Source: Lophium mytilinum (lineage: Eukaryota). From it: 64,000 nucleotides of DNA. This document shows, piece after piece, positions 20,422 to 42,099 of this stretch. The first letter of the stretch is position 1. Every line of letters begins with the position of its first letter. The notes below the pieces were generated by a model. The model saw only the letters and a program-made list of their open reading frames with translations, had not been told where the DNA came from and ran no database searches. Made by a program: the position numbers and the translations under genes. Location of the stretch: positions 383,502 through 447,501 of the forward strand of contig MU004182.1 of the NCBI GenBank assembly GCA_010093605.1, read 5' to 3'.

Positions 20422-23400
20422 ATGGCCGGACTGTACGTCTCTTCCCCGCCCACCGGGGCTGGCGACGCGACGCGAATCACGCAGATTGGCGATGCCGAGT
20501 TCACCCAACTCCCCTCCTTCGCCTCGCCTTCGAAGGGACAGAACGACTTGATTGCGCAAATACGAGGGGCCCGGCCACAGGGCTCACGAACACCATCTGC
20601 GCGGAACCCTTTAGGTCAGCTTCGACAGCCGCCGGGGAAAGTCGAGTTCACGCCGCTGCTGAAGAGCGCAACCCACAACCGAATGCAAGCCAATGCAAAT
20701 GGATATGGCGTAGGGCAACCAGACTTCAGGGCCGATGGAAAGCCGCGTACCCCAGCCGCGATGAAGCCCGGCTTCAAGTTCAACGGCAGTCCCTTACCAG
20801 AGCCCAGCGTTTACGACGCAATGAACTCAAGTTCCATAGGTGAGACTGGCATGAGTGGAACGCCACTTCCACCGGTTGCAAGCTCGAGTGCCATGTCGAC
20901 CCCATTAGCATTACCTAGACGAGACGGAGAGGGTGCTTTGGATGGAGGCAATATGATGACCCTGCGAGAGCAGGAAGCTGTACGTATTCGTTACCTCAAT
21001 TTGGTGCCTCACATTCTAACACGTCACTACAGCGTATCGAATCCATTGACAAGGAGAACTTCGGCCTGAAACTCAAGATTCACTTCCTCGAAGAAAACCT
21101 CAAGCGAGCCGGGCCCGAATTCAATCAGAATGCCTTCAGGGAGAACACGGAACTCAAGATGGACAAGGTCACCATCCAGCGAGACCTACAGAAGTATCAG
21201 AAGATGCTCAAGCGCGCCGAGAATGAAATGGAGGAGTACAAGAAGCAGTTCCAAGACTATGTGGAAAAGGTCAAGCGTCGACACAAAGATGAAGGCATGC
21301 AAGAAGAAATGGAAGAGCTGCGGAAGCTTGCAGATGAGCGAGCTGCCGATTTAGAGGAGCGAGAAGCCGAACTGGAGAATCTCAAGCGCGAGGCTGCCAA
21401 TATGAATGATAACGACGAGGAGCTGGAGGAGCTTCGAGGGGATCTGGATGACATGGAGGCGGAAATCAAGGAAAAAGACCGACTTCTGGATGAGAAGAAG
21501 GACGAGCTCGAGGCACTCCAGGCTAAGCTTCAGGCAGGAGAGAACAATCAAGACGGGGAGCTCGAAGAAAAGGAGCGCTTGATCGACGAGCAAGCAGATC
21601 AGATCGAAGACCTCCAGGAACAGCTACAGCAACTGGCGCGGGAGAAGGATGCGGAGCTTGATGCCCTGCAAGAGAACCTAGATTCCATGGATGCGCGCAG
21701 AGAGCAGGAGCTACGAGAGCTTGAGAAGAGGCTGGAGGCTGCTGAAGAGTCTGAACGACAGCAGGTTGAATCTTTACGGGAAAATGAACGACAGCATGTT
21801 GAAGCCGCACGAGAGAAAGAGATGGAAATCAAAGCCCTCCAGCGACAAGTGCAGGCCGCCGAGCGCGCAAAGCAAGGCGAGATTGATGCTTTGACGGACA
21901 GATTACGCCTAGCAGAGTCACAAGGTGATAACCAGGTCCAGCTTGCTCAACAAGCCGCCCAGGACGCACGCCAACAAGTTCTCCACGTGACACGTGAAAA
22001 AGATACTGAGATGGAACTCCTGCGGTCTCGGCTTGATGCGGCAGAAGCCAAAGAAGACGAGCTCGACGATTGCCGCCGGCAGCTACGTCAGACACAAGAA
22101 GATCTCAAGCGCCTACGGTCACAGGAATCACTACGAGAAGAAGACGTTCAACAGCTTCGTAATAGCCTTGCTACAAAGGAACAAGACCTTGAGAGGATCA
22201 AGCGGGAACGCGATACAGCTATGCAAAACGTCTCTTCCAAGGAAACCCAGATTGAAGCCTTGCAAAAGACGACGCGTGAGCGTGATAATGCTCTACGGGA
22301 AATCCTCGCTCTCCGTAGTACTCTCAAAGAGCGCGAACGCGAGCTTGAGACCACGCAAAAGACAATGTCAGCATTGGAGACAGCTCAGCAAACAAGTATG
22401 GACAGCCTGAAGACGCTTCAATCGACCCTGAATGAGCGAGCACGCGACCTGGAGACCGCACGGAAGACTATCGAAGAACGGAACGCTGAGCTAGAGGCTC
22501 TTCGGGAATACGCCGACGAGCCTGACACTCAACTCGAAGCTGTACAGAACATTGTGCGCGAGCGTGACCACGACTTGGAGTCCCTCCGTGACCAAGTCAA
22601 CTCCCAAAGAGGCCAACTTGATGACCTCCAGCGGACAGCCGAAGAACGACTAGCTGCCATGGAGAACTTGAGGACTGAGCTGTCCAACACGAAGCAAGAT
22701 CACGAAGATGAGATCCTAGTGTTGGAAGAGAGCATTGAAGAGGCGGATGAGGAGAAGCGGGGCCTTGAAGCTAAGATTGATGTCCTTGAGAAGGAGATTC
22801 GGGGCTCCTATGATCTTCAAGCCAAAATCGAACCACTTGAGAAGGATCTACGGACCGCACAACGGGAAAAGACGAAGCTACAGTCACGAATCGAGAGCTT
22901 AGAAAAGGACCTCAACGTCGCGGATCAAGATCGCGAGGCCCTTACAACTCGTATGGAGAAGCTCAACAAGGACATCCAATCCGCGCGGCAAGCTGCCAGC
23001 GCCAGCTCTGATGTTACCATTGCACAGGAACGCAAGGACCTTCATAATCTCCTTAAAGCTGCAAAGCTCGAGGCCGAGGAGCTCCAAATCGCTGTTGAGG
23101 ACAAAGAACAGAAGCTTGCTGATGCACAGAAGCGATTACGCCAGGAGGTGCGAGACCGAGACACCAAGCTGCGAGCTGCGGAAACCGAAGTCCAGAATTT
23201 GCAACTTCAGCTGTCAGAAAAGGATGGCGAACTCTCGGCTTATGCGTCGAAACTGAGGCAAGGATCTACGAGCAAGGAGTCACCGAAGAGGCAACCAAGG
23301 GAGCTTCGCGATCTCCAGAATCGTCTCCAGACGGCCGAACTGGAAGTTGAGGATCTCCGGCTCCAGATCTCGGACCGAGACGAACGTCTAGCAGCTCTCA

Positions 23401-23979
23401 AGACCGAGTCGAAGAACTTGGTTCGTGAGAAGGAAAAGAAGATTCGTGCGGCTGAGCTCGGCCTCGCATCCGCGCAGAAACAACTCCGGGCTGCGGCGGA
23501 CAACAACACTGTCGACCTTATGGAACTCAAGGAAGACATCACGGGCAAAGATAAGAGACATGCCGGCGAGCTTCGAGGCTTGGCAAAGCAAATTCAGTAC
23601 TTGCGTGCTAAGTGTCAACGCGAGGAGGGCTTCAGGGAGGCACTCGGGTTTCAGAAGAAGTTCTTCTTGATGATGATTGAGGTTTATGGTCAATGGTATG
23701 TATTGCTTTTTACACTTGGACTTTACAACACGCTAATATTTCTGTAGTAACAAAGAAGACTTGAAGCTCATCGAAGAAATCGGCATCACTCCTGACATAT
23801 CCATCCGCGAGAAGAGGCACTCTCTGCGCTCCGTGGGCCTAATGGTGATTGCGAGTGTACGAATGCGGAAGATGCAGATGGATTGGGCGGGTAACAAGAA
23901 GCTGCACGCTGCCCTGGCGAGGAAGGTGGAGTCGATGAGGAGGCAGAGCCGAAGAAACGCAAGCGTTGCAGCGAGGTAA
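20422..23979 (+). CDS. Spindle pole body protein, Pcp1/Spc110-like (CM1 + coiled coil + PACT)
   Basis: CM1/Cnn_1N motif MTLREQEA|RIESIDKENFGLKLKIHFLEE across an intron, a long heptad coiled coil, and a PACT-like end (KRHAGELRGLAKQIQYLRAKCQREEGFREALGFQKKFF ... LRSVGLMVIASVRMRK). Confidence 0.85.
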
Positions 23980-36257: not shown

Positions 36258-39200
36258 TCAAGGCTTCCAACTCAAAATCATCTGCTGCCTCAGCAAAAAC
36301 CGCCTCAAATTATCGTCCACCGGCTTCACCACCATATTCAGCATATCCGCCTTCTCTGCCTCGTCCCTCTTCGCCTTCTCCTTTTCCAGCTTCCGCCTCA
36401 GCCACTCCTCTCGCTTCTCATGAATCTTCGCGAACTCCTCCCCAGCTTTCCCATCCCCCAAATACTCATCCATCACCCTCACCGCCTCCAAAAACCTCTT
36501 CACATCCTGATCCCTCTCCTCCTCCACCCTCTCAAACGTCCCCCCATGCAAAAACCCCTCATACTCCGCGCGCCACTCAAAATCCCTCTTCCCATTCTCC
36601 TCAATATCCTCCTTATCCTCCCTCCACAACCGGCCCGTCTGCCGCTCCCTATCCGGCTCCCAGACATAACTCTTCGGAATCCCCTCACGCACGCGAAACC
36701 ACTCCTTCTTCCGCCACTCCTCCCTCCGCTCCGCCTGCTTCCCCAGCCACACCTGGTGCTCCGACCTCTTCCACTCGTCCTCGGCCCGCGATGCCTTCTC
36801 ATAGCGCCTCGCCTCCCGCAGCGGCGCCTCCGTCGGCGGCGGCTTGACCACGCACTTGACGCGCTGGCAGCGGCCGCGGTGCAGGACGTTGCCCAGCTCC
36901 TGCATGCACGCCCACCACTCCGCGTCGGCGAGGTAGGCGGCGCGCATGCTGGGCTTGAGGAGCTCCCAGCCGTGGTCGTCGGGGATTTTCTGGTGCGCGC
37001 CGCTGCCGACGCCGAGGACGGCCATTTCGCGCATGAAGCGCGGCGCGGGGCCGTCGGCGTAGTGCAGGTGGGGTGGGGCTTCGGTGGCGCACTGGAGGAG
37101 GACGAGGTAGAAGGAGTCCATGTCGTGGCAGAGGTTGCGGTGCGTGAGGTCCGCGGGGATGGAGAGATAGGGGGAGGTGAAGCCGGGGGTGCTGTGGGTG
37201 AGGCCGCGCCAGGAGAGGCCGTGGTTGTCGAGGGCGTTGGACCAGTCGATTAGAGTGCCCCAGCGGTCGGAGAAGGTGGTGTTGCCGGTGAGGGGGGTGT
37301 ATTGGCGCGGGACGACGATGTTATCGATGGAGATGTCGCCGTGCATGACGCCTCTGTCGCCGCTCATCCAGGCGTCGTAGTAGACGATTATTGCGTCTCT
37401 TACGATCCGCATCAGGTCCTTCGGGCGTCTCAAAGAACGCACTACGTCGCTGAGTGGAGTGCAGTATGGCGTGAGAAGCTGTGTCATCTTCCTTGGAGGG
37501 TTTTGTGGATTTATATCTGCCACCTCCGCATAGCAAGAAGGTACTTGTCCAGATGCTATAGCCTGGCCTTCAGCATCTTCAGGCCAAGCGGAATTGATCC
37601 AGTAGGGCGTTGGGATTCCACGGATATTGACGACGAGAAAGTCCCGCATTATCTCGACTTCTGGACGGGGCAGCGAGTTCTTCGAGGGCCCCACGAGTTC
37701 CCATGAAGTCTTCAAGACGCAGGCATTCGCGGATACTCCTTCACGGCCGCCACCAGACCCATCCGCTCCATCTTCGTCAACCGTGAGGGGATCATGCAGG
37801 TATGTTTTGGCCGCCTTGACGTATCCAGTATCCGCGACGCCGTAGGCCTGTTTCTCTTCGAGACTCATGTTATTCTCGGTCCGCTCCCGCTTCGTGTAGG
37901 CATGCTCGAAGACCAACTGCTGTCTCGTTTCGTTTTTGCACATATCCGAGCCCTCAAGACACCACTCGTTGTTCTCTAGCTTCATCTTCCAGCCTTTTGT
38001 GTCGTCACCACCCTCTTTAGTGAACGGAAAACCCGCGTGATGCCGATTGGCCCAGAAAAGCTCTAACAGCGCCTCTGTTCTCTGTGCCTTTTCCCTATAT
38101 CGATCATCTTTCAGGTCTTGCAACTGCTTTGCAATTTCCGGGTTATTCCGCTGTTTTGTTTCTTCCTCGTAGTTGTAGATTTCTTTATGCCAATCATCCA
38201 GGCGATCGTGCAAGTTCTTGATAGCAGCGACCTCTCCGACGCTAAGCTCACTGTCGTTCCAGTCGAAATAACCGGTTTTCAGCTGGCTGTGACCACGGAA
38301 CTTTCCCTGGGCGGCCCAATAGTCGTCCATGCGAAACCCAAGAGGCAAGGGGCTTTCTACTCCACAATCTTCATACACAGTTTTATTGAGGGTGGGACCT
38401 CGGCGGGGTGCCAATCCATTGTCCATACGACGGTATGGAGGACTGTCGTATTCAATATCTGAAGACGAGATATCGCTATATCGCCTCCGCCTCTTTGGCG
38501 AAGGAGTTTCCGCATCATCAGAGTCCTCGGATTCTGATGTACTTGAACTCCTGTACCGCTTACGAGCGTTGGTCTTTTGGGGCTTCTTGCGACGTTCGGT
38601 TGACTCGGAACTATCGCTCGTGACTCGTAGACGGGGTAGAGGGGTTTCTGGACCTTCTTTTGTAGAGGTCCTCCAGTCGTCGTCGTCACTAACGGAAGTG
38701 TCCTCCCAATCTTCGTCTACGTGTTCAGGGTGGACTTGGTAGTCGTTTGCGTCGTCACTGGGGAAGTCTGCTCCTGTCCTCTCGTCTCCGTTCTCTGAAC
38801 CATCTTTAGCGGCCACGGAGGCGTCGTCCCGTCCTTCGGGGAGTTCTGTGTCTTCTACAATAGGTGGTAGGTCCTGAAGGGTTGGATTTGAGACGTTCGT
38901 CATGACGGCATCCTCAACCCCAATCGGAGCGGAGGAACTTCCCTCTGTACCAGATGAGGCAAGGTCGTTGGTTTCCTGGCTTGGAGCATCCGCCATGGTG
39001 ATATCTTCGCCGGCGCCTTGGGTTTCGCTAGCCTTATAGGGCTCTTTTGGGGTTTGTTCCATGGCCGTAACGGCCTGCACAAAACCGCCCCTGCATGCGA
39101 ACGATATTGGCACAGCTTTCGGGGCGCCCGTAACATCAGCCCTCTCAACCATTCCCACAACCTCTTCTCCATCATCTTCGCCACTCCCCTCATCCATCTC

Positions 39201-40142
39201 CACATCCTCCTCACTCCCGTCTCCACCCCTTTCCACAATCATCTTCAACTCCCCCTTCGCCCTCTCCACCTCCTCCTCCCCCACCTTCTCCACCCACGCC
39301 ACCCTCGTAAATGGCCCCCTAACCACCTCATTCACATGCAACACCCTCCTCTCCCGCCACCAACACTTCCCAAACCAAAACGCATCCAAATACGGACTCT
39401 CCATCCTCATCCCCCCCCTCTCCACCCTCCCACTCTCCATAAACTGCAGTACAAACCGCGCCAACGTCGCCGCATTAACCCCGCTTTGCGTAAACATCAG
39501 CGGCAAGCTCACCACATTCTCAGAATGGTCGCTATACACGATCATCGCCGCGGGGCGGATGAAGAGGATACCGAGGAGGAACCGCCGCCACGGCTGCGCT
39601 TTAAACACCTCTTCCGCTTGGTACAGCCACTGCATGTGCACGCGCTCCACGCTCTCCGGGTCGAAGGCGGACGCGGTCGAGTGCTCGCATAGCAGCGCGA
39701 CGTTGCTGTACCAGGCGGCGCCGGCGCCGGTGTAGAGTGCGAAGGGGGGGTGCATCGGGGGCGGTTCCATGGCGGTGTGGGAGTCGGCGAGGGCGTAGAA
39801 GCGTTTGCGTCGTGGGCCGAGAGGCGGGACGAGGTGTTTGGTGTAGATTAGGTTGAGGTCGCCGAGGAGGTCCGGGTGGAAGGCGGTTGTGATGGCTTTG
39901 TGGAAGGAGGCGGGCGCCCAGTTTTCGTTGCAGTTGCCGAGGGGGATTAGGGGCGCGAGGAGCTGGGTGGCTGCGCTGCGGGTGTCGTCGTCGAAGGAGG
40001 CTTCGAATTCGTCTAGGCCGGAGAAGGGGGGGAGGAGGGGCGCTGGGTTGATTTCGGGACGGCGGGGGACGTCGGGGAAGAAAGAGGGGGTGTAGGAGAA
40101 GACATGCTCGTGGAGAATAGTGAAGCAGGTTTCGTAACACAT
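36258..40142 (-). CDS. Fungal-type protein kinase (FunK1/Pkinase_fungal-like) with large internal insertion
   Basis: QPWRRFLLGIL, VLKTSW, PEVEIM, RDAII...VMHGDISIDNI, GTLIDWSNA, HSTPGF and HDMDSFYLVLL follow the FunK1 motif order in one open frame of about 1290 aa. Start codon uncertain. Confidence 0.72.
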   Translation of the reverse strand: MCYETCFTILHEHVFSYTPSFFPDVPRRPEINPAPLLPPFSGLDEFEASFDDDTRSAATQLLAPLIPLGNCNENWAPASFHKAITTAFHPDLLGDLNLIYTKHLVPPLGPRRKRFYALADSHTAMEPPPMHPPFALYTGAGAAWYSNVALLCEHSTASAFDPESVERVHMQWLYQAEEVFKAQPWRRFLLGILFIRPAAMIVYSDHSENVVSLPLMFTQSGVNAATLARFVLQFMESGRVERGGMRMESPYLDAFWFGKCWWRERRVLHVNEVVRGPFTRVAWVEKVGEEEVERAKGELKMIVERGGDGSEEDVEMDEGSGEDDGEEVVGMVERADVTGAPKAVPISFACRGGFVQAVTAMEQTPKEPYKASETQGAGEDITMADAPSQETNDLASSGTEGSSSAPIGVEDAVMTNVSNPTLQDLPPIVEDTELPEGRDDASVAAKDGSENGDERTGADFPSDDANDYQVHPEHVDEDWEDTSVSDDDDWRTSTKEGPETPLPRLRVTSDSSESTERRKKPQKTNARKRYRSSSTSESEDSDDAETPSPKRRRRYSDISSSDIEYDSPPYRRMDNGLAPRRGPTLNKTVYEDCGVESPLPLGFRMDDYWAAQGKFRGHSQLKTGYFDWNDSELSVGEVAAIKNLHDRLDDWHKEIYNYEEETKQRNNPEIAKQLQDLKDDRYREKAQRTEALLELFWANRHHAGFPFTKEGGDDTKGWKMKLENNEWCLEGSDMCKNETRQQLVFEHAYTKRERTENNMSLEEKQAYGVADTGYVKAAKTYLHDPLTVDEDGADGSGGGREGVSANACVLKTSWELVGPSKNSLPRPEVEIMRDFLVVNIRGIPTPYWINSAWPEDAEGQAIASGQVPSCYAEVADINPQNPPRKMTQLLTPYCTPLSDVVRSLRRPKDLMRIVRDAIIVYYDAWMSGDRGVMHGDISIDNIVVPRQYTPLTGNTTFSDRWGTLIDWSNALDNHGLSWRGLTHSTPGFTSPYLSIPADLTHRNLCHDMDSFYLVLLQCATEAPPHLHYADGPAPRFMREMAVLGVGSGAHQKIPDDHGWELLKPSMRAAYLADAEWWACMQELGNVLHRGRCQRVKCVVKPPPTEAPLREARRYEKASRAEDEWKRSEHQVWLGKQAERREEWRKKEWFRVREGIPKSYVWEPDRERQTGRLWREDKEDIEENGKRDFEWRAEYEGFLHGGTFERVEEERDQDVKRFLEAVRVMDEYLGDGKAGEEFAKIHEKREEWLRRKLEKEKAKRDEAEKADMLNMVVKPVDDNLRRFLLRQQMILSWKP

Positions 40143-40658
40143 GGTGGGAGTGTGGGTTATGTAGCTGGTCAGGTTGGTGCTGTGGGGGTGTGGTAGGGCG
40201 GGATTGGTGTAGGTGCGCTGGCAAGCTGAAGAAAAATACAAACATATAAGTATGCGAGATAGTGTTGTGTTTGGGTGAATGTTAGCCAAGTGCTTCTTTG
40301 ACACTAGGCGAAGTGTCTTGATGGAGTCGTTGGACGGCGAATATTGGCAACTATGGAGAAATAGGTGAATAGATAATAACAGAGGCGATTAAAGCTAGTG
40401 AAAGTCAGCCGGAAACGAAGGTGTTGTTGAAGGGAGTTCCCCGAGCTTCGCTTTAGCACTCTACCTTTACCTGTTGTGTGCCTTCTTCTAAGTGTATACT
40501 TTGCGAAAATATTCAGACCACTTTAACACGCAGTGGCAATGGTACTGCGCAAGATAGGTGCTTAACGATAGCCTACAGGAGAAGTGAGGTGATAGTGTGA
40601 GCGAGTGTAGGTCTATGTTTGGTTTAATTCTGCCAATCCCCAACTAATTCAAACAGCA

Positions 40659-40860
40659 GGTCCCTCGGCTCAGTTCGTTCAGCGCCACCAACGAGCCCCT
40701 CAGGGGTTGTGAGTTTGACTCCAGCCCTTGTTGACATTATGGCTTTCCTATAGATTCGACTGCAAAGTCGCGCGGAAACGCAATAAGTCCATCTTGTCAC
40801 GGAGCAAACTCTTCGGAGTTTCTACACCCTCCTCGAGGAGGGTGGTCTTTTGCTCTTTTT
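40659..40860 (+). ncRNA. Candidate structured ncRNA or tRNA-headed SINE-like element (identity unknown)
   Basis: A-box-like CGGCTCAGTTCG (40666-40677), B-box-like GAGTTTGACTCC (40711-40722), nested stems with GCAA, GAAA and cUUCGg tetraloops, a 20-bp palindromic hairpin, then T4 and T5 runs. Confidence 0.5.
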
Positions 40861-41112
40861 GAAAAACTGCGGCCTAATCTTGTTGCTTGTACTACTTCGC
40901 GGACTGCATGTAGACCCCCCTTATTTTTCTAGGAGGAGCGCATCTTAACTTAAGGATTATGGAACGAATGCGAAATAGAAATGAGATGTGGTTCATCCAG
41001 CGCTGTAAATTTATTGCCGCATCGGGATTACTGAAAGATATCCAAGAACTATGTTTACGCCCAGTAGTCTTTACGAAGAGCTAGGGCCTCACCATAACCC
41101 GTCCTTACCTAT

Positions 41113-42099
41113 CTACCTATCCTCCTGCTCCAAGACTTCAACCGGAACTCCTGTACTCTTTCCACGTAAATCGGCTTTCAAGACCTCCACCACCTCTTCT
41201 GGCTTTCCCATCCCCTCTGTGCCCCCTCTCCCATCCACCACTTTCCCAAGGACATCAAACACCTCAGCTACCTTCCCAAAGACTTGTCCCTGAGCACCCC
41301 AGCCTCCCTCTTCCTCAAAACAGGTCCCGATCTGGTTCATCTCTTCCACCCACCGATACGCTTTCGGGGGACAGCCCACCAAGCCCCTCGCCGCCAGCTG
41401 TCCTACCGCCGGAGTGTATTCCTCGAGGTACTTCTGCATTTGTGGCAGGACATCTAGCGAGGAAGCCGTGCTGAAGGACTGTAGCGCTAGAGCGGCAATG
41501 CCCTTGTTTATAGCACCAAAGCAACACTTCAAACCCGACGCGGAACCAATTGTAGGGGACACGTATTCGGTGTTCAGCGTATCCGCTAGATGTTGGCCGC
41601 TAACTGGGGCCGCATTGAGGGCGTGAGGCCCCGATATGGGGATACCAGGGCGTTTCCAGGTCGAGTCTGAAGCGAGCGAGGGCGGGCCGCCGATGATGCC
41701 ACCGTCTACAAATCGTAGCGCCGGAGTCTGGGACTCAAAAGTAGCATTGATGGCGCGGGCGGTAGAAGGCGCTATCGCGTTGAGGTCAAGGAAGTAGAGG
41801 GGGTGGCCAGAGGTTGCTCGTGGAGCTGGCGTCGAATTGAGAGCGCTGATGATGCGGCCGGCGGTCACCACAGCGTCTCGGGGAGGGACTATGGAGAGGA
41901 TGTAGTCGCATTGCGCGACGAGCTCTGTGTCAGTGTTTACTAGGCTGATTGAGGCCGAAGATGCGCGCGCCTGGGTTGCAGAGCTGCGGTTTGCAGCGTT
42001 TGTGAAGACGCGGTAGTTGTGGGCTTGGAGCAGTTTGGCTATGCCCAAGCCCATGCTACCGATTGACAGGATGCCGATGTTGGCGAGCGGAGCAGACAT
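41113..42099 (-). CDS. NAD(P)-binding 6-phosphogluconate-dehydrogenase-like protein (DUF1932 C-terminus)
   Basis: IGILSIGSMGLGIA Rossmann motif, ILSIVPP, FLDLNAIAP, FVDGGIIGGPP, ASGLKCCF, KAYRWVEEM. Confidence 0.82.
   Translation of the reverse strand: MSAPLANIGILSIGSMGLGIAKLLQAHNYRVFTNAANRSSATQARASSASISLVNTDTELVAQCDYILSIVPPRDAVVTAGRIISALNSTPAPRATSGHPLYFLDLNAIAPSTARAINATFESQTPALRFVDGGIIGGPPSLASDSTWKRPGIPISGPHALNAAPVSGQHLADTLNTEYVSPTIGSASGLKCCFGAINKGIAALALQSFSTASSLDVLPQMQKYLEEYTPAVGQLAARGLVGCPPKAYRWVEEMNQIGTCFEEEGGWGAQGQVFGKVAEVFDVLGKVVDGRGGTEGMGKPEEVVEVLKADLRGKSTGVPVEVLEQEDR

Follow-up and report, generated by a model that had tools for sequence, protein, structure and literature searches.

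The element at positions 40659–40860 of the window (the whole stretch of DNA analysed, 64 kb in length) is tentatively read as one copy of an undescribed, low-copy, dispersed non-coding family, a Pol III-type SINE-like repeat, a reading that we hold at somewhat less than even confidence and for which we infer transcription, polymerase and mobility from the sequence. The sequence-only reading that preceded this analysis had proposed a single Pol III RNA, possibly a switch or ribozyme; that headline is unsupported, since the element is multi-copy, its GAAA hairpin and UUCG loop are not kept across copies and the A/B boxes of this copy occur at chance level.

The window is fungal. The element sits in an 808-bp gap separating a kinase-like from a dehydrogenase-like ORF, both on the minus strand, lying ~355 bp upstream of the former (36258–40304, 1348 aa, Pkinase_fungal, PF17667, E 3.2e-12) and ~250 bp downstream of the latter (41113–42099, 328 aa, DUF1932 and NAD_binding_2). 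No ORF of at least 60 aa crosses this gap and stops are found in all six frames, the longest spurious ORFs at the element being 58 aa (minus strand) and 44 aa (plus strand), so that its earlier description as non-coding DNA was borne out. The spurious 58-aa minus-strand ORF, used as a protein-database query as a proxy for copy counting, returned no candidate. Within the 1348-aa ORF the Pkinase_fungal match is C-terminal only (residues 948–1070), the first 900 residues carrying no Pfam match.

All motifs described in the sequence-only reading were found in place by direct reading of the sequence. Together with the upstream segment, the parts of the element are as follows:

40549–40654, plus strand: upstream segment common to the family, promoter-like or 5' part of the repeat unit
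40557–40566, plus strand: GGTGCTTAAC block, GGTGCTTGAC-like in paralogues
40623–40629, plus strand: TATA-like TTTAATT
40659–40730, plus strand: tRNA-sized head with A-box-like and B-box-like motifs 46 nt apart and no cloverleaf
40666–40677, plus strand: A-box-like motif CGGCTCAGTTCG
40696–40706, plus strand: hairpin CCCC-TCA-GGGG
40711–40722, plus strand: B-box-like motif GAGTTTGACTCC
40731–40799, plus strand: predicted three-way junction with the GCAA and GAAA hairpins as arms, the MFE structure being the centroid structure
40732–40736 and 40795–40799, plus strand: stem TGACA/TGTCA, a junction closing stem in the predicted fold
40739–40745 and 40785–40792, plus strand: stem ATGGCTT/AAGTCCAT, a junction closing stem in the predicted fold
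40757–40770, plus strand: GCAA hairpin CGACT-GCAA-AGTCG
40772–40781, plus strand: GAAA hairpin GCG-GAAA-CGC
40799–40809, plus strand: conserved linker ACGGAGCAAAC, reading ACGGAGTAAAC in other copies by sequence comparison
40801–40811, plus strand: B-box complement GGAGCAAACTC
40806–40821, plus strand: hairpin AAACTC-TTCG-GAGTTT, 6 bp, cUUCGg-capped in the window copy
40825–40844, plus strand: GC-rich terminal hairpin, a perfect 20-nt palindrome
40847–40860, plus strand: T4 (40847–40850) and T5 (40856–40860), the 3' limit of family homology and a putative Pol III terminator

The predicted fold of this stretch beats that of its shuffles. Positions 40640–40870 on the plus strand reached −77.8 kcal/mol (z −3.20), with 0 of 200 shuffles equally good, and 40655–40862 scored z −3.17 on the plus strand and −2.07 on the minus strand. 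The body alone (40731–40846, 116 nt), in which the predicted three-way junction is followed by the cUUCGg hairpin and then by the palindromic hairpin, has identical MFE and centroid structures and scored z −3.90 on the plus strand (1 of 200 shuffles equally good) and −3.21 on the minus strand, with the tRNA-like head (40655–40730) at z −1.72 (11 of 200) and +0.12, respectively. At z −3.2 to −3.9 the stretch is indeed strongly structured, as had been claimed, and its canonical loops were confirmed as a plus-strand feature, the three tetraloops reading correctly on that strand only. GNRA and cUUCGg hairpins with Watson–Crick stems of at least 5 bp number three on the plus strand of the 64-kb window, two of them in the element, and none on the minus strand. 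With stems of at least 3 bp allowed, three tetraloop hairpins fell within 100 nt of each other in 11 of 200 mononucleotide shuffles. Another such group, made up of three GNRA hairpins with 3-bp stems, is found in the window at 22205–22340 on the plus strand, inside an 862-aa ORF (21159–23747, plus strand) with purine-rich repetitive sequence, and serves as a control for chance groupings. Overall, the better-than-chance status of the element's motifs is mixed.

The A- and B-box-like motifs, previously put forward as marks of Pol III transcription, are present at tRNA-like spacing, but the frequency of such pairs is at chance level in the window copy. Allowing at most 2 mismatches in each box at tRNA-like spacing, 4 pairs were counted over both strands of the window, versus a mean of 5.0 in 60 shuffles, and all 60 shuffles held at least one pair; the 12-mer GAGTTTGACTCC, with at most 1 mismatch, occurred once versus 0.37 expected. 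ARAGORN reported 0 genes, and the B-box-like motif carries T at the position of the near-invariant C56 of tRNA genes. Relatives are more tRNA-like at one site: position 40676, C in the window copy, is G in 3 of the 3 other contigs covering it, which yields GCTCAGTTGGTT, a D-arm-like string, and this reading in relatives is the best argument that the head may have its origin in a tRNA D-arm. Other A/B-box-like pairs (at most 2 mismatches each) were located at 39960/40000 (plus strand), 40569/40621 (plus strand) and 46927/46876 (minus strand). The pair at 40569/40621 falls within the upstream segment conserved in the family, and a second, upstream tRNA-like unit at this position was rejected, the pair being at chance level.

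Searches against known RNA families were negative throughout. Rfam 15 covariance models gave 0 matches at the gathering score over the whole 64-kb window, and at E ≤ 10 on 901 nt and 221 nt they returned fragments of unrelated families only (10.9–14.9 bits), with nothing to tRNA, SRP, RNase P/MRP, snRNAs or ribozymes, so the earlier statement that no known RNA family is represented stands. RNase P/MRP and SRP (Alu-like three-way junction), U1/U2/U4/U5/U6, U3 and H/ACA or C/D snoRNAs, and the hammerhead, HDV-like ribozyme and TPP riboswitch were each rejected on the lack of a covariance model match at E ≤ 10 and of a diagnostic box by eye. Nothing supports a switch or ribozyme reading.

That the element belongs to a multi-copy unit follows from comparison with other sequence data. 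Six public runs share words with the stretch, four of which (X3–X6) were compared as contigs at 80% likeness or above; the RNA nature of run X3 is only guessed, and it was used as contigs. This run held at least 4 separate contigs (2955–4575 nt) with one copy each and differing flanks, and two air metagenomes and one leaf-litter metagenome contributed 6 further short contigs with the element, so that the proposal of a single undescribed ~200-nt RNA is not supported. No second copy was found within the 64-kb window. The copy syntenic with the window is on one X3 contig (record 4, 2955 nt), which matches from 40739 to beyond 41100 with 5 substitutions, all within 40779–40805, and ~20 inserted letters, within 40783–40794. 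The absence of any difference over 40806–41100 implies that the genomes of X3 and the window are almost identical, and hence that X3 records 1–3 are paralogues. Record 1 (4285 nt) matches 40603–40727 at 110 of 125 letters and record 2 (4575 nt) 40614–40699 at 77 of 86, both resuming at 40815–40855 (38 of 41 letters); between these matches likeness drops below 80%, with 80 and 114 letters standing in for 87 and 115, respectively. Record 3 (3981 nt) matches 40704–40855, except that 7 nt are inserted after 40730 and the 35 nt of 40744–40778 are duplicated in tandem. The syntenic record 4 and paralogue record 3 have a 7-nt insertion in common, as well as C>T at 40805. The differences of record 4 over 40779–40805 suggest local duplication or gene conversion between copies.

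On the 3' side the limit of the unit is sharp, with 7 contigs losing likeness at 40854–40860, at the T-run. Beyond this limit most contigs read further ..TCTTTTTGG / ..ATATTCTTTTTGG and copies diverge right after TTTTTG(G/A); from the further ..ATATTCTTTTTGG in most contigs, the family end is T5 then G, and the window copy is by comparison ~10 nt shorter. On the 5' side, the alignments of three paralogous contigs start at 40603, 40614 and 40618. By eye, the 30-letter loose ends of these three paralogues carry a (G)CTTGAC block 22–30 nt before the aligned part, the same block standing ~45 nt before it in the window, so that upstream spacing is variable; the loose ends match further upstream to about 40549–40561, one of them back to ~40549. 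From these by-eye matches the unit reaches at least 85–110 nt upstream of the A-box-like motif, and the units of the family would be about 250–320 bp long. A classical SINE begins at its own transcription start. A plain SINE is thus contradicted by the upstream homology, and of the alternatives in the sequence-only reading the tRNA-derived SINE is the nearest but imperfect, agreeing with the multi-copy state ('many copies = SINE') and not with homology extending at least 85–110 nt upstream of the A-box-like motif.

Hallmarks of mobility were sought around the unit. No TG..CA ends with a 4–6 bp target site duplication (TSD) were found for starts at 40540–40664 and ends at 40845–40989, even with 1 TSD mismatch, and no inverted repeats of at least 9 nt occur in 40480–41000 besides the internal palindrome, leaving no TIRs in this test for a DNA transposon or MITE. 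Repeated 5-mers in the flanks numbered 31, a count taken with no shuffle control and compared with an estimate of ~30 by chance; only the 6-mer ACTGCG (40544 and 40866) brackets the homologous span, and no convincing TSD was found around the element. The copies share no A-rich or simple-repeat tail. A Helitron end (hairpin and CTRR) was rejected, no CTRR being seen by eye at the homology limit, as was a complete TRIM with a PBS at 40540, there being no upstream LTR copy.

The pattern of conservation among copies is uneven along the element. Differences near the ends of aligned pieces are unlisted in this comparison, and consequently many base pairs are unscored. C>T at 40805 is found in 6 of the 6 other contigs covering the site and gives ACGGAGTAAAC, with neighbours unchanged in most. 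In X3 record 3, 40810 T>C is paired with 40817 A>G (U-A to C-G) and the local-hairpin pair is kept; changes at 40811–40813 abolish the UUCG loop. X6 record 10 carries the same variant, and in X6 record 8 the loop reads UUCA. The GAAA hairpin carries G80>A in X3 record 3 and both G80>A and C81>T in X4 record 6, X6 record 8 has lost 3 nt there and X6 record 9, by eye, a longer stretch. The GAAA hairpin and the UUCG loop are thus not kept across copies. The GCAA hairpin is unchanged where covered except for a 1-nt loop insertion and is uninformative either way. In the palindrome (40825–40844) the listed changes are only C27>T, which keeps a G-U pair (1 contig), and a 1-nt insertion (1 contig). 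Comparative support among the hairpins is thin and limited to the two 3' hairpins, as far as the aligned copies indicate. The earlier suggestion that the B-box-like motif pairs with 40801–40811 in competition with the local hairpin is not favoured, because the change at 40810 is compensated at 40817, inside the local hairpin 40806–40821. Two of the three X3 paralogues fall below 80% likeness in the middle domain, and duplications or insertions are present in records 3 and 4. Conserved across copies are the head, the linker ACGGAGYAAAC, both 3' hairpins and the T-run, with a variable, indel-prone junction domain. In X5, a 151-nt metagenome contig, 72 of 73 letters are alike inside the element, versus ~21 of 31 for its next 30 letters against the window flank (aligned by eye), a pattern suggestive of selection acting on the RNA part and not of an old insertion decaying neutrally.

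As a SINE-like repeat, the element would be transcribed on the plus strand from ~40655, 25–30 nt past the TATA-like TTTAATT and just before the degenerate, putatively tRNA-derived head, with transcription ending at the oligo-T (40847–40860). The product would be an RNA of ~200 nt whose tail is predicted to fold into the junction domain and two 3' hairpins. Transcription, termination and propagation would depend on the conserved parts, namely head, linker, 3' hairpins and T-run, leaving the junction domain free to vary.

This SINE-like reading draws on the dispersed multi-copy unit (4 X3 contigs and 6 metagenome contigs), the loss of likeness at the T-run (40854–40860) in all copies, the pairing of hairpin 40806–40821 kept through U-A to C-G alongside the G-U-compatible change in the palindrome, and a head that in relatives reads GCTCAGTTGGTT with tRNA length and box spacing. 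The fold (z −3.2 to −3.9), the absence of an ORF of at least 60 aa and of a known RNA family, and the precedent in Agaricomycetes of tRNA-like Pol III modules inside dispersed repeats, as described in the parts of PMC10886601 consulted, point the same way. Against it stand the homology at least 85–110 nt upstream of the A-box-like motif (by eye), the lack of a convincing TSD and of a shared A-rich tail, a count of only 4 or more copies in one genome, a box pair at chance level in the window copy, T at the C56 position of the B-box-like motif, and the contrast in X5 between element (72 of 73) and flank (~21 of 31, by eye). The last of these would sit better with the main rival reading, a non-mobile, lineage-specific multigene family of putative structured small RNAs, which we consider possible but rather unlikely. 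Each gene would consist of a GGTGCTTGAC block and TATA-like box, a ~200-nt RNA and an oligo-T terminator, its product being a putative trans-acting protein-binding scaffold with the linker and 3' hairpins as functional core. Patchy upstream conservation with variable block spacing, a sharp 3' limit exactly at the T-run in 7 contigs, the X5 figures just given, the compensatory change at 40810/40817, divergent middles of near-equal length (114 versus 115 and 80 versus 87 letters), a strong fold and the absence of a TSD, LTR ends or TIRs are all consistent with such genes. However, most of the RNA consists of the junction domain, whose likeness falls below 80% in two of the three X3 paralogues, ~20 letters are inserted in the syntenic, near-identical copy, record 3 has its 35-nt tandem duplication, at least 4 contigs have a disrupted GAAA hairpin, and prior odds for dispersed 300-bp intergenic families favour repeats. 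A fuller version, in which a selected, non-mobile Pol III-transcribed (or snRNA-type) small-RNA family combines a tRNA-derived 5' module, a variable junction and a protein-binding core of ACGGAGYAAAC and two 3' hairpins, is on the present sequence comparison unlikely; if true, the family would stand alongside vault, Y or BC1-type RNAs as their fungal equivalent, without a described relative.

The other two explanations dispense with a SINE-like repeat in different ways. Helenus elements are TRIMs whose LTRs hold a tRNA-like Pol III module (Kojima 2024, PMC10886601), and in the parts of that work consulted the LTRs start with TGTT.., end with ..ACA and have 5-bp TSDs and an intact tRNA-like part near the 3' end. 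A solo LTR of such a Helenus-type TRIM (TRIMp3) would account for a tRNA-like string inside a longer repeated unit of similar size and for a TGTT start, as in the LTRs described there, at 40616, where two paralogues begin aligning; moreover, the entries consulted record Helenus in Agaricus, Coprinopsis and Amylostereum, with LTRs of 209–269 bp that are sometimes solo only (PMC10886601). We nevertheless regard it as highly improbable: there is no TG..CA pair with a 4–6 bp TSD, no second copy in the 64-kb window and one per X3 contig, hence no paired LTRs, and homology continues upstream of 40616. The Agaricomycete LTRs in the consulted entries have an intact tRNA-like part near the 3' end, unlike the degenerate head (ARAGORN negative) followed by a 130-nt structured tail seen here, and three window strings (9–12 nt) are absent from the supplement of PMC10886601. 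Also improbable, if less so, is that no dedicated RNA exists and that the stretch either is what remains of a different, decayed repeat or belongs to the cis-regulatory or UTR sequence of the flanking genes, its hairpins being by-products of duplication and palindrome. The minus strand folds well too (body z −3.21), the palindrome is strand-symmetric, relatives have internal tandem duplications, the kinase-like (~355 bp) and dehydrogenase-like (~250 bp) ORFs are close by and the box pair is at chance level. Yet the three canonical tetraloops are correct on the plus strand only, 2 of the 3 long-stem plus-strand tetraloop hairpins of the window lie here against 0 on the minus strand, the 3' limit coincides with the oligo-T in all copies and one change is compensatory.

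Small RNA genes offer a further comparison. BC1 and 4.5S-type RNAs are SINE-derived or SINE-related Pol III small RNA genes, and yeast RPR1 and SNR52 have promoter-bearing leaders; they resemble the element in a 5' tRNA-like promoter module, a longer Pol III transcript, an oligo-U end and lineage restriction. They differ from it in that no sequence or structure match to the element was found, and none of this type is known from the element's fungal group. If the copies are selected small-RNA genes, they would constitute a new class of fungal Pol III RNAs whose conserved core is compact and testable. tRNA-derived SINE2 elements, such as the AfuSINE2 families of Aspergillus fumigatus (PMC5063351), are likewise short, non-coding, dispersed and multi-copy, with a degenerate tRNA-like head bearing A/B-box-like motifs at tRNA spacing, a tRNA-unrelated body and then T-runs. 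The element differs from the SINE2 type in its homology at least 85–110 nt upstream of box A, in having no convincing TSD and no shared A-rich tail, and in its at least 4 copies seen, its unusually structured body and 3' end and a conservation that ends at the terminator. With Helenus/TRIMp3 it shares a tRNA-like Pol III module in a 200–320 bp repeat unit, some families being solo only (PMC10886601), but it is without TG..CA ends, a 5-bp TSD, paired copies or PBS/PPT, and its tRNA-like part is far more degenerate and not near the 3' end, with none of the three strings searched in the supplement shared. If SINE-like or TRIMp3-like, the element would represent an undescribed family among fungal elements that are poorly catalogued as a class, and would caution against taking 'canonical' tetraloop clusters with A/B-like boxes as a mark of unique RNA genes, since repeats can bear them as well.

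Among the literature searched on fungal and Agaricomycete SINEs and Pol III ncRNAs, the Helenus work alone was relevant, and a full-text literature search with four window strings found one of the four, in an unrelated wheat paper. Gapped-pattern scans of genome contigs and of viral contigs gave 0 and 0 matches. Metagenome contigs scanned with the 3'-hairpin 21-mer TCGAGGAGGGTGGTCTTTTGC yielded 1 locus (L001, a contig of 1221 nt) that carries the 21-mer exactly and is otherwise unrelated to the element, a chance match.
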